Shown here: positions 31,026 to 32,944 of the stretch, piece by piece | Numbering within the stretch: the first letter of the stretch is position 1 | How the letters are laid out: each line of letters begins with the position of its first letter | Sequence record: PV540240.1 | DNA from: Escherichia phage BUCT788 | Length of the DNA stretch: 40,473 nt | Reading direction: 5' to 3' (one strand) | The notes under the pieces: model-generated | Database searches by the model: none | The model's input: only the letters and a program-made list of their open reading frames with translations | What the model was told of the DNA's origin: nothing | Program-made: the position numbers and the translations under genes

Positions 31026-31529
31026 ATGAAACTGATAGGCAAAGGCGCGTTCACTAAGTGCTACCTGAAGGATTGCGGGAAGCGTGTACTTCTGATCTCT
31101 TCTGACCCGATAAAGGAGTGTATGGCGTGGGGATGGTTTCCTGAGTCTCCACTGTTCCCTGAAGTCAAGATGATTGAGGTAGGCACGTATGAGATGGACT
31201 ACATGCCACCAACGCGAGGTCTCAAGGCGCATTTAGCCGACGACCAGTGGCAACTCTATCAGGTGCTGCGCGAGTGCTTCTCACGGTCTCCGGTAGTCTC
31301 TCGGCCTGCTGACCTGTATCACAAGTGGTACGAGATATTCCAAGTTGCACACGACAGGTCTGAGACTGAGACTGTGAGGGAAGGTCTGATGGATGTGCTG
31401 ATGGCGCTGGACGCCTGCTCTAACTTTGGGTCAGACATTCGGTTTGAGATAAGCCCACGCAATGTACGGGCTGTGAATGGCAAGCTGATACTGGTTGACT
31501 GTTTCTTCCTTGTGTCCAAGCTGCAATAG
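31026..31529 (+). CDS. First early protein (167 aa), hypothetical; not Ocr-like
   Basis: Good RBS (AAAGGA) after the candidate RNase III site. Not acidic like Ocr; has a glycine-rich GKGAFTKCY motif of unknown meaning. Confidence 0.75.
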   Translation: MKLIGKGAFTKCYLKDCGKRVLLISSDPIKECMAWGWFPESPLFPEVKMIEVGTYEMDYMPPTRGLKAHLADDQWQLYQVLRECFSRSPVVSRPADLYHKWYEIFQVAHDRSETETVREGLMDVLMALDACSNFGSDIRFEISPRNVRAVNGKLILVDCFFLVSKLQ

Positions 31530-31543
31530 GTGAGGTCATCAAG

Positions 31544-31720
31544 ATGGTAACTTATGGTCTCTGCCAGCACCACGTCACCATCGCCCGGATTATGGTCAAG
31601 ACCGGGCAGTTAAACCACGAGGAGGCCATGCGTCTCTTGAAAGTGGTCTACAGGAGACGCAAGCGCATACATGACAGCTTACACACTGAGGACAGTAAAC
31701 ATGTACCAGATAACTTATAG
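31544..31720 (+). CDS. Small early ORF (58 aa), hypothetical
   Basis: ATG with GGTGAGG RBS; below the ORF-track length cut-off. Confidence 0.3.
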   Translation: MVTYGLCQHHVTIARIMVKTGQLNHEEAMRLLKVVYRRRKRIHDSLHTEDSKHVPDNL

Positions 31721-31826
31721 CAGTGAACAGGCGTTCTACGATGGGTGCTACGAGATGATGAAGCGCGGGGCTTGCTACGTGGCTAATCACCATAGCCTGA
31801 CAATAACGCTGACAGGTGGGTACTGA
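31701..31826 (+). CDS. Small early ORF (41 aa), hypothetical
   Basis: ATG with GAGGA RBS 7 nt upstream. Confidence 0.3.
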   Translation: MYQITYSSEQAFYDGCYEMMKRGACYVANHHSLTITLTGGY

Positions 31827-31868
31827 GTGTTAAACTACAGGTCATCTACATGGTGGCCTGAGTGATTA
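31808..31868 (+). promoter_or_regulatory. Early-region hairpin element, candidate RNase III site
   Basis: AAACTACAGGTCATCTACATGGTGGCCTGAGTGATTACCACTTGATAACTACAG. Confidence 0.35.
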
Positions 31869-31897
31869 CCACTTGATAACTACAGAAGGAAAGAATA

Positions 31898-32245
31898 ATG
31901 ACTGCTAAAACTCGCAATGTATTCTCGGTAGCATTTAAACTCAACGTTGTTAACTATTACTCCTCTCTGCCTGAGGGAGTTATGGATAGGGTGACTGAAA
32001 CCGCCCAAAAGTTCGGGGTGGGGACGAGTTCGGTGAAGCGCTGGTTTACTCAGTATAGCCGTGGTGAGCTTGCCATGGAAAACGCTATTGCGGTGAGTCG
32101 GAGGCCTTCTAAGGTAATAACAGGCGATATTTACCACCTTGCAGGAAAGGACTTCAAGTCCAAAGAGGAGGCGATACGCTATGCGGTTGAGCTTGCTGGT
32201 GGGCTGACTGTAAGCAAGATGACCACTGTATCGGTGGAAGTGTAG
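31898..32245 (+). CDS. Early protein (115 aa), hypothetical, possible helix-turn-helix
   Basis: RBS AAGGAA; the segment AQKFGVGTSSVKRWF looks like a helix-turn-helix, by eye only. Confidence 0.7.
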   Translation: MTAKTRNVFSVAFKLNVVNYYSSLPEGVMDRVTETAQKFGVGTSSVKRWFTQYSRGELAMENAIAVSRRPSKVITGDIYHLAGKDFKSKEEAIRYAVELAGGLTVSKMTTVSVEV

Positions 32246-32267
32246 CCGTGTAAGGCCTAGCTGAGTG

Positions 32268-32322
32268 ATAGACGAGAGGTCATCGACTGATAGGTGGCCT
32301 CAAAGATTACCACTTAAATTGA
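32268..32322 (+). promoter_or_regulatory. Early-region hairpin element, candidate RNase III site
   Basis: GAGAGGTCATCGACTGATAGGTGGCCTCAAAGATTACCACTTAAATTG. Confidence 0.35.
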
Positions 32323-32334
32323 TAGAGGTTAACT

Positions 32335-32424
32335 ATGAGTGTTGGACATTGGGTATGCTTATCTCCGGTCATCTGGCTAATAGGGTATGGGATATACGAC
32401 TGTATTAAACGGAAATCACTATGA
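32335..32424 (+). CDS. Small early ORF (29 aa hydrophobic peptide), hypothetical
   Basis: AGAGG RBS; its stop overlaps the start of the next ORF (ATGA). Confidence 0.25.
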   Translation: MSVGHWVCLSPVIWLIGYGIYDCIKRKSL

Positions 32425-32618
32425 GTAGCGCAATATTGATAGCCATAGGCTATGGACTTATCGCCTACGTGCTGGTGAGAGACATCAACAAAGCGCGTAA
32501 AGTCTATAAATTCAACTATGTACGTATGGTCCGCTGGACTGTACGTCAGCCTAACGGACGATTCATATGCAACCTCGCGAACGTCTGGGATATAGCAACT
32601 CTTGGGAGCAAACTGTAA
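32421..32618 (+). CDS. Small early membrane protein (65 aa), hypothetical
   Basis: N-terminal hydrophobic helix (AILIAIGYGLIAYVLV); coupled to flanking ORFs by overlapping stop/start codons. Confidence 0.5.
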   Translation: MSSAILIAIGYGLIAYVLVRDINKARKVYKFNYVRMVRWTVRQPNGRFICNLANVWDIATLGSKL

Positions 32619-32944
32619 TGAACAAGTCATACGGGATTAATTTGGTACACTCTATGGACGCAGAAATGAATATGTTAAGCCTACTGGCTACCGGGTATCG
32701 TCACGGAACGTCAAGTCACGCCGCACGTCAACAGCAGGAGCGGGACCGTGTACTACAGGCACGACTCCGGGCAGAGGGCCATAAGTCCGAACTGATGTGT
32801 CTGGCGTATGGCGGACGACCGATCACTGACGATGGTAAACTTTTAGTCTCAGGCTGGAAGGCGATAGACCAACGGTCAACCATCAAGCACACGACTCACG
32901 GTGACTTCAGTCATCTTCACGCTAACCCACTGATATGCAAGTAA
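32618..32944 (+). CDS. Early protein (108 aa from ATG 32618), hypothetical
   Basis: TAATG overlap with the upstream ORF and a GGGAG RBS; the ORF-track start 32567 overlaps the upstream gene. Confidence 0.6.
   Translation: MNKSYGINLVHSMDAEMNMLSLLATGYRHGTSSHAARQQQERDRVLQARLRAEGHKSELMCLAYGGRPITDDGKLLVSGWKAIDQRSTIKHTTHGDFSHLHANPLICK

Follow-up and report, generated by a model that had tools for sequence, protein, structure and literature searches.

The left-end early region of Escherichia phage BUCT788 raises the question of which proteins take the places held by Ocr and the gp0.7 protein kinase in phage T7 and by the S-adenosylmethionine (SAM) lyase in phage T3. The window analysed here is the whole sequence record PV540240.1 (40,473 nucleotides), in which seven open reading frames (ORFs) encoding 167, 58, 41, 115, 29, 65 and 108 amino acids (aa) lie between positions 31026 and 32944, ahead of the RNA polymerase gene. 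An earlier note, made from the sequence alone, had concluded that these ORFs have no recognisable T7 0.3/0.7 counterparts and had proposed them as anti-defence candidates on account of their position. The first statement stood for Ocr, the SAM lyase and gp0.7. No ORF gave a PHROG or BLAST match to Ocr, and their isoelectric points (pI 6.0-10.4) and contents of Asp plus Glu (at most 13%) differed from those of T7 Ocr (4.05 and 29%; reference values for Ocr, pI about 4 and Asp plus Glu about 26-29%). Likewise, no ORF matched the SAM lyase or the T7 kinase family by sequence. Taken as a lack of any recognisable counterpart, it failed for the 58-aa protein (gp0.4), for the 65-aa protein (T3 gp0.6) and, judging from its predicted fold, for the 167-aa protein. 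On this fold model, one early product of the phage is of kinase type, but its family and its slot differ from those of gp0.7. The gene in question and the element ahead of it are the following:

31026-31529, + strand: 167-aa minimal protein-kinase-like protein (phrog_11084), predicted from fold model and motifs
30958-31007, + strand: RNase III-type hairpin, equivalent of T7 R0.3, directly 5' of the 167-aa gene (-21.8 kcal/mol, z -4.0)

The sole sequence match of the 167-aa protein was phrog_11084, a family without assigned function (E 1.4e-89). Searches with the protein and its profile against Pfam, NCBIfam, PADLOC and PDB sequences returned nothing usable; the SAM lyase of PDB 7OCK/8BB1 was not matched among the PDB sequences, nor were the T7 kinase models (PF27024, phrog_2828/15752/18305) at E ≤1 in Pfam or E ≤0.1 in PHROGs. 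We found no experimental work on this family in a literature coverage that was incomplete, so that absence is not proven. In the window the gene ends with a TAG codon at 31527-31529, seven codons short of the 174-aa version (...KLQEVRSTRW) present in most close relatives. The missing residues are not part of the conserved core, and another 167-aa version exists in a public assembly.

Structure prediction gave a kinase-like fold with high confidence for this protein. The AlphaFold2 model, built on an alignment of 48 sequences, had a mean predicted local distance difference test score (pLDDT) of 96.5 and a predicted template modelling score (pTM) of 0.90. It consists of three strands, a short helix, two strands, helices, a strand-loop-two-strand unit and a final short strand with a turn. 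In kinase terms, these elements correspond to an N-lobe of strands 1-5 with a GxGxF loop and a short helix carrying K30-E31, three helices, a catalytic-loop-like FEISPRN segment and a DCF Mg site, after which neither an activation segment nor a substrate lobe follows. The model thus shows the order of the bilobal protein-kinase-like (PKL) fold, namely strands 1-5 with helix C, helices D/E, catalytic loop, strands 7-8 and Mg-binding Asp, and we assign the 167-aa protein on this model to a minimal PKL fold. When the model was compared by Foldseek with the viral models of BFVD, the top match was a member of the same family (TM 0.86), followed by several small uncharacterised phage proteins and by T7K-type kinases, that is, kinases of the gp0.7 type (E 1e-4 to 5e-4, TMq 0.55-0.61). 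The latter were A0A7L7SMK1, the NahiliMali 'Protein kinase' and A0A6G5Y6X2; A0A7L7SMK1 is listed as a divergent T7K homologue in a 2026 paper on the T7 kinase (PMC13645617).

The candidate active-site residues are strongly conserved. The glycine-rich motif GKGAFTKCY, which the earlier note had pointed out, is present and corresponds in the model to the ATP loop of the fold (G5-K-G7-A-F9). It is followed by K30-E31 on the short helix after strand 3, by the catalytic-loop-like F140-E-I-S-P-R-N146 and by the Mg-site-like D158-C-F160. G7, K30, E141, S143, R145, N146, D158 and F160 were invariant in 48 homologues, and the same eight residues were invariant again in a second alignment to which phage homologues down to 30% identity had been added. 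E31 was invariant in this second alignment, while its conservation in the set of 48 exceeded 90%. The pattern that stays invariant in the family down to 30% identity comprises G7, F9, K30-E31, F140-E141-I-S143-x-R145-N146 and D158-x-F160. Of the PKL hallmarks, the glycine-rich loop G5xG7xF9, the catalytic-loop Asn (N146) and the DFG-like Asp (D158) are invariant or nearly so.

The 167-aa protein resembles T7K (phrog_2828/15752, PF27024) and JSS1_004 in being an early phage protein with a compact kinase-like domain, and with T7K it also shares the order of motifs: GxGxF[ST]xxY, F-[DE]-x4-N-V and then G-[KR]-L-I-x-x-D-[PC]-[VF]. In profile alignments, hhalign paired FEISPRNV...GKLILVDCF of the 167-aa protein with the T7K-type FDTHRANV...GRLIITDPV, and the whole protein was collinear with T7K residues 70-223 (score 23.3, E 0.0098), compared to scores of 8-13 and E values of 0.2-0.9 for five unrelated control pairs. 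This collinear alignment is suggestive but not significant, and therefore we did not file the protein as a member of the T7K family. Membership of the gp0.7 family was also rejected by motif, as the invariant DCF and FE-x4-N of the 167-aa family stand against DPV and FD-x4-N of T7K (T7K motifs taken from PMC13645617), and by architecture and position, since the protein ends 9 residues past D158 and is encoded in the 0.3 slot. It differs further from T7K in having Glu in place of the catalytic Asp, no VIK lysine, no N-terminal extension of about 70 aa and no C-terminal shut-off/DNA-binding domain, in a location that does not adjoin gene 1, and in the lack of a significant match to the T7K family models. 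A comparable size is found in the effector mini-kinases OspG, NleH (NleH1) and HopBF1, although the latter, type III effectors that bacteria deploy in eukaryotic cells, have retained the canonical Lys and Asp and show no sequence similarity to the 167-aa protein.

We then compared the position of the gene across 25 genomes of Kayfunavirus, i.e., the window and 24 related early regions (3 GenBank records and 21 IMG/VR contigs); a second IMG/VR scan with the polymerase N-terminus mostly recovered the same contigs. The slot behind the R0.3-type hairpin held the kinase-like gene in nine genomes, including the window, and Ocr in 11. Among the remaining six, five carried a 150-aa T3-type SAM lyase, which matched the SAM lyase of PDB 7OCK/8BB1 at E 9.6e-57. 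Phage K1F, too, carries Ocr. About 100 nucleotides (nt) upstream, including the hairpin, were homologous in all three slot types, and the first gene began 8-20 nt after the hairpin; hence, the kinase-like gene, Ocr and the SAM lyase are true positional alternatives. Like T7 Ocr and the T3 SAM lyase (gp0.3), the 167-aa protein is encoded by the first early gene directly behind the R0.3 hairpin and, like Ocr, directly before a gp0.4-type gene, whereas its sequence, charge and fold are unrelated to theirs. The positional part of the earlier proposal was therefore borne out, this being the first gene in the classical 0.3 slot. As for function, both characterised occupants of the slot are anti-restriction proteins, which makes the 167-aa protein an anti-restriction or anti-defence candidate on position and analogy only. 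Were it anti-restriction, it would act by enzymatic modification rather than by DNA mimicry or SAM depletion. The T3-type SAM lyase (L014, 1622-2071, phrog_2226) is labelled 'SAM-dependent methyltransferase' both in PHROGs and in the RefSeq record of T3 (NC_003298), a label that is misleading in view of its sequence match to the solved SAM lyase 7OCK at E 1e-56.

The family extends well beyond Kayfunavirus, with 154 homologues in a large protein collection and 83 phage genome records. Carriers include Kayfunavirus, Dickeya Aarhusvirus, Seuratvirus (among them the BASEL phage Bas25) and Pseudomonas Otagovirus, as well as Ralstonia, Aeromonas and Cellulophaga phages and Klebsiella podophages of 44-46 kb, one of which was checked and belongs to Molineuxvirinae. 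A few Dickeya phage records and UniRef name the protein 'serine/threonine kinase', the others 'hypothetical', 'uncharacterized' or 'unknown function'. In Seurat, an operon at a divergent promoter region begins with the homologue, whose distance from the left record end is about 0.9-1.1 kb in the Aarhusvirus phages Mysterion, Luksen, Dagda and Katbat. In several genomes of Kayfunavirus and in a Molineuxvirinae Klebsiella phage, a gene of 62-64 aa (phrog_336; L001 761-946, L002 1300-1485, L010 934-1119, L060 3252-3446) stands immediately 5' of the kinase-like gene, and the two may travel as a pair; the window is without it.

With regard to its role, the 167-aa protein would bind ATP-Mg and transfer phosphate to one or few host proteins very early in infection, with E141 acting at the position of the catalytic Asp and K30 replacing the missing strand-3 lysine; in the model, K30 would be the only candidate ATP-phosphate ligand for this replacement. 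Given the slot that the gene shares with Ocr and the SAM lyase, the likeliest targets would belong to the restriction or defence functions of the host, in principle as recently shown for the T7 kinase, with general host take-over as the main alternative. The T7 kinase disarms defences by phosphorylation (PMC13645617) and JSS1_004 does so with the Dnd defence (PMC12345140), so that an anti-defence role is demonstrated for both. By this line of reasoning from the model, the 167-aa protein may be an active minimal phosphotransferase on host proteins, most plausibly related to defence. We lean, with a confidence only somewhat better than even, towards an early operon in which a mini-kinase of this kind acts on host proteins beside homologues of gp0.4 and gp0.6 and a helix-turn-helix (HTH) protein.

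Several observations weigh against this interpretation. The functions of all the early proteins are predicted, and no kinase family was matched in Pfam, NCBIfam, PHROGs or PDB sequences. The hhalign comparisons with T7K (E 0.002-0.02, probability 1-15%) are not significant alone, and the window copy of the gene ends seven codons before its 174-aa relatives. In the active site, the family has an invariant Glu (E141) at N-5, where kinases have the catalytic Asp, and no conserved Lys in strand 3 (residues 20-25), the invariant K30 being located on the following helix. Because of these two departures, a pseudokinase or a different chemistry is possible. A catalytically dead protein would work through binding as Ocr does, either by taking up ATP or a nucleotide or by inhibiting a host protein stoichiometrically, and the replacement of Ocr, a pure binder, in the same slot agrees with such a mode of action. 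Nevertheless, the G-loop, the Mg/ATP ligands N146 and D158 and also E141 are invariant down to 30% identity, a pattern typical of active sites and not of degenerate ones, and we regard a dead kinase as rather improbable.

Instead of a protein kinase, the 167-aa protein could also be a kinase of small molecules or another nucleotide-dependent enzyme, with, e.g., a metabolite, a cofactor or a signalling nucleotide of a defence system as its substrate. In small-molecule kinases with this fold, however, the DFG-like Asp is followed by a large C-terminal pocket for the substrate, where the 167-aa protein has only 9 residues past D158; moreover, it also structurally matches the similar-sized effector protein kinases OspG, NleH1 and HopBF1, and T7K-type protein kinases are its closest annotated viral matches. 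We give this explanation little credence.

The remaining points concern the slot. A 244-aa T7K-type kinase was encoded in 7 of the 25 Kayfunavirus loci and the kinase-like gene in none of these seven (p about 0.02 with phylogeny ignored), but this absence may be lineage history. In addition, Dickeya phage Mysterion carries the mini-kinase two genes upstream of a full-length T7K, so the mini-kinase is not simply a T7K substitute; mutual exclusion of the two, which holds in the 25 Kayfunavirus loci (0 overlap) and fails in Mysterion, was not used as evidence of redundancy. Finally, the slot argument may reflect only a recombination hot spot. This leads to the explanation of a plain host take-over without anti-defence, according to which the targets modified by the 167-aa protein would be RNA polymerase or RNases, as classically held for gp0.7, and the exchange of genes in the slot would stem merely from such a hot spot beside the conserved hairpin. 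It accords with two neighbours of take-over type (the gp0.4 and gp0.6 homologues), with the presence of the family in many unrelated phages within clusters of small early genes and with the coexistence of mini-kinase and T7K in Mysterion. On the other side, both characterised occupants of exactly this slot are anti-restriction proteins, and the 167-aa gene is the first to enter and to be expressed, in keeping with a function that must act ahead of exposure of the DNA. We take host take-over as a serious possibility, though one that will probably not prove right.

A bolder form of the defence-related proposal would have the 167-aa protein found a new class of anti-restriction/anti-defence enzyme: a kinase of about 19 kDa with a Glu base and without strand-3 lysine which, as the first phage protein made, inactivates type I restriction-modification, BREX or other DNA-targeting defences by phosphorylation, functionally replaces Ocr and the SAM lyase, and has spread horizontally through Autographiviridae, Seuratvirus, Otagovirus and Cellulophaga phages. 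In this full form the proposal is unlikely. Under the preferred interpretation of a mini-kinase acting on host proteins, the family would be a second, much smaller, sequence-unrelated phage kinase-like family with unusual catalytic residues, beside T7K and JSS1_004, and among the smallest kinase cores known. If it proved able to counter defences in the place of Ocr, it would bring a third mechanism to the gene 0.3 position, beside two textbook anti-restriction proteins, and would give a function to 83 phage records, mostly annotated as 'hypothetical'.

Mysterion thus has two kinase-like early proteins, since its early operon (L059 1057-2968) comprises the mini-kinase, a homologue of T7 gp0.6A (55% identity) and the full-length T7-type kinase. 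In the IMG/VR copy of phage ZG49 (L009), a partial tandem duplication of the kinase-like and gp0.4-type genes was observed at 1310-2743.

Regarding the genomic setting, a 3.1-kb query around the early genes matched 385 phage records, the best of which were all Kayfunavirus (K1F-like Studiervirinae), with 88-93% identity over 66-85% of the query and mosaic gaps. The left terminal repeat of Penshu1 is matched from about position 30254 onwards, an alignment that marks the window as a whole genome in circular permutation, with its left-end early region at 30254-33041. The segment 31026-32944 is the class I (early) operon of a Kayfunavirus genome, of the T7 family, and would remain a correctly delimited, ordinary mosaic early region even if none of the proposed roles held. 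In addition to the 167-aa gene, it comprises the following genes, listed with the gene that marks its end and, where available, with the ratio of non-synonymous to synonymous polymorphism (pN/pS):

31544-31720, + strand: 58-aa distant homologue of T7 gp0.4, the FtsZ inhibitor (phrog_5058; pN/pS 0.35)
31701-31826, + strand: 41-aa conserved small protein (phrog_33188), starting at an internal ATG of a 51-aa ORF (pN/pS 0.17)
31898-32245, + strand: 115-aa accessory protein with an N-terminal HTH and a conserved C-terminal module
32335-32424, + strand: 29-aa single-pass hydrophobic peptide (pN/pS 0.27)
32421-32618, + strand: 65-aa basic protein with an N-terminal membrane helix (phrog_2385), homologue of T3 gene 0.6 and K1F '0.6' (pN/pS 0.29)
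32618-32944, + strand: 108-aa core early protein (phrog_7066), starting at an internal ATG of a 125-aa ORF (pN/pS 0.28)
33042-35723, + strand: T7-type single-subunit RNA polymerase (gene 1), end marker of the early region

Each of the seven ORFs has a Shine-Dalgarno-like sequence ahead of its start, and overlaps of the type ATGA and TAATG join the 29-aa to the 65-aa gene and the 65-aa to the 108-aa gene, respectively. All seven are under purifying selection (pooled pN/pS 0.13-0.35 among 6-25 related Kayfunavirus early regions), and the two smallest keep ATG, Shine-Dalgarno sequence and exact length in every locus that carries them (17/17 for the 29-aa ORF, 16/16 for the 41-aa ORF). Hence, the seven ORFs are genes and not chance ORFs. 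The earlier description was accurate in this respect, both in the positions of the ORFs and in their ribosome-binding sites and overlaps, as it was for the HTH of the 115-aa protein, the two small hydrophobic proteins and the hairpins resembling T7 RNase III sites, of which we found three, homologous to those of T7 and T3.

The elements with a predicted role in early transcription, apart from the hairpin ahead of the 167-aa gene, are:

-35 box TTGACT at 30677, + strand: early promoter for host RNA polymerase, homologous to T7 A1 (alignment with the T7 A1/A2/A3 regions)
-35 box TTGACA at 30807, + strand: early promoter for host RNA polymerase, homologous to T7 A3 (same alignment)
31825-31874, + strand: RNase III-type hairpin separating the 41-aa gene from the 115-aa gene (-21.0 kcal/mol, z -3.6)
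32262-32316, + strand: RNase III-type hairpin separating the 115-aa gene from the 29-aa gene (part of a fold of -24.7 kcal/mol, z -1.9)
32953-32969, + strand: perfect match to the consensus of the phage's own promoters, TAACTATCACTATAGGA, 73 nt 5' of the RNA polymerase start codon

The two host promoters together span 30677-30838 on the + strand; a simple consensus scan did not flag them, and they were found by alignment with T7 and by reading of the sequence. The three hairpins align base for base with T7 R0.3/R0.5/R1 and with the RNase III stem-loops annotated in the T3 record, with the common core ...AACTnCAGGTCATC...GGTGGCCTGAnTGATTAnCACT..., and the core of the hairpin at 31825-31874 is near-identical to that of T7 R1. 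The hairpin at 32262-32316 has a z of only -1.9, yet it is homologous in sequence to the other two and to the T7 and T3 sites. The hairpins share the internal loop and the homologous sequence of T7-group RNase III sites, cleavage itself being predicted. An Rfam search of the early region gave no match; such hairpins are not in Rfam. Host RNA polymerase would thus start at the A1/A3-type promoters (30677 and 30807), and RNase III would cut the transcript at the three hairpins into mRNAs carrying the 167-58-41, the 115 and the 29-65-108 genes. The phage promoter consensus TAACTATCACTATAGGA occurs ten times on the + strand of the window, compared to 0.13 expected copies, and the copy at 32953-32969 would let the RNA polymerase transcribe its own gene. 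To our knowledge, T7 has no phage promoter at the corresponding position ahead of gene 1. Upstream of the operon, a 71-aa ORF (30601-30816, phrog_30192), which the Penshu1 annotation treats as a gene, showed a pN/pS of 0.86 at low divergence, with the A1-like promoter inside it and the A3-like promoter at its end; this stretch probably has a regulatory role and does not constitute a gene.

The second gene of the operon encodes a 58-aa protein with 39% identity to T7 gp0.4 over 41 aa (BLASTP in a set of seven sequences, E 6e-5). The cross-matches in PHROGs were reciprocal, T7 gp0.4 matching phrog_5058 (E 9e-5) and the 58-aa protein phrog_7202 (E 1.2e-3), and each gene lies directly 3' of the 0.3-slot gene. 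By sequence comparison, it is a distant homologue of gp0.4, which it resembles in core length and from which it differs in PHROG (5058 vs. 7202), in charge (basic, pI 9.7, vs. acidic, pI 4.75) and in a longer C-terminal tail. Most likely it would block FtsZ ring assembly. K1F gp02 (L029 1623-1772, 49 aa, annotated as 'hypothetical') is 80% identical to the 58-aa protein. A 2022 study reported that K1F infection perturbs FtsZ and blocks division, and ascribed this to a novel FtsZ inhibitor because K1F was said to lack gene 0.4 (PMC9372555). With the 58-aa protein and K1F gp02 as gp0.4 homologues, gp02 is the obvious and concrete candidate, on sequence grounds, for this 'unknown' inhibitor. The homology may also matter for defences that sense gp0.4-FtsZ.

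The 115-aa gene was found in 6 of the 25 loci and only in T7-like phages of about 40 kb. Its N-terminal HTH (approximately residues 8-55) is predicted to be of the Brinker/CENP-B/IS3-OrfA type and was modelled with a domain pLDDT of 85-90, and its match to Pfam BrkDBD (E 3.5e-4) was below the gathering cut-off. The C-terminal part of about 55 aa was far more conserved than the HTH, with 28 invariant columns; its domain model was of low confidence, and a weak match to DUF2188 (E 0.06) was not significant. The C-terminal 50 aa or so also occur in frame behind the N-terminus of a SAM lyase in Cronobacter phage Dev2 (P0148) and behind a gp0.4-type N-terminus in P0149. From their sequences, both fusions look like deletion derivatives that kept the C-terminal module, which suggests that this module is the selected part of the protein. 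The 115-aa protein is predicted to be a DNA-binding accessory protein, with the C-terminal module probably as its effector part. Unlike Brinker/CENP-B/IS3-OrfA (HTH_Tnp_1) systems, it has a distinct conserved C-terminal module and no transposase catalytic domain, and therefore its UniRef name 'Transposase' is misleading.

The 41-, 29- and 108-aa proteins gave no informative match. The 41-aa gene, which is annotated in relatives, shares 20 nt with the 3' end of the 58-aa gene. The 108-aa gene was present in all 25 loci directly 5' of gene 1 and is restricted to Kayfunavirus-like phages, with only 12 cluster representatives among 1.84 billion proteins. No match to its product was found in Pfam or PDB profile searches, and its identification as a detached shut-off domain of T7K was rejected, as the hhalign E value (0.6) was the same as in the negative controls.

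The 65-aa protein showed 40% identity to the T3 gene 0.6 protein over 60 aa (E 7.8e-9) and 88% identity to K1F '0.6'. It is, by this similarity, a T3 gp0.6 homologue, both proteins consisting of 65 aa with an N-terminal hydrophobic helix and a basic tail, whereas it is unrelated to T7 gp0.6A. The 65-aa protein would be membrane-anchored and basic; the T3 record gives no function for the gene 0.6 protein, and we know of none. A 118-aa gene annotated in Penshu1 over the area of the 29- and 65-aa genes was rejected as an over-extension, given that the window and many relatives have a closed frame upstream; only the unit of 64-65 aa has a conserved ATG in this area. The 29-aa peptide, translationally coupled to the 65-aa gene through the ATGA overlap, occurs in two sequence variants among the 17 loci. 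In the IMG/VR copy of ZG49, it forms an in-frame C-terminal extension of the 65-aa protein.

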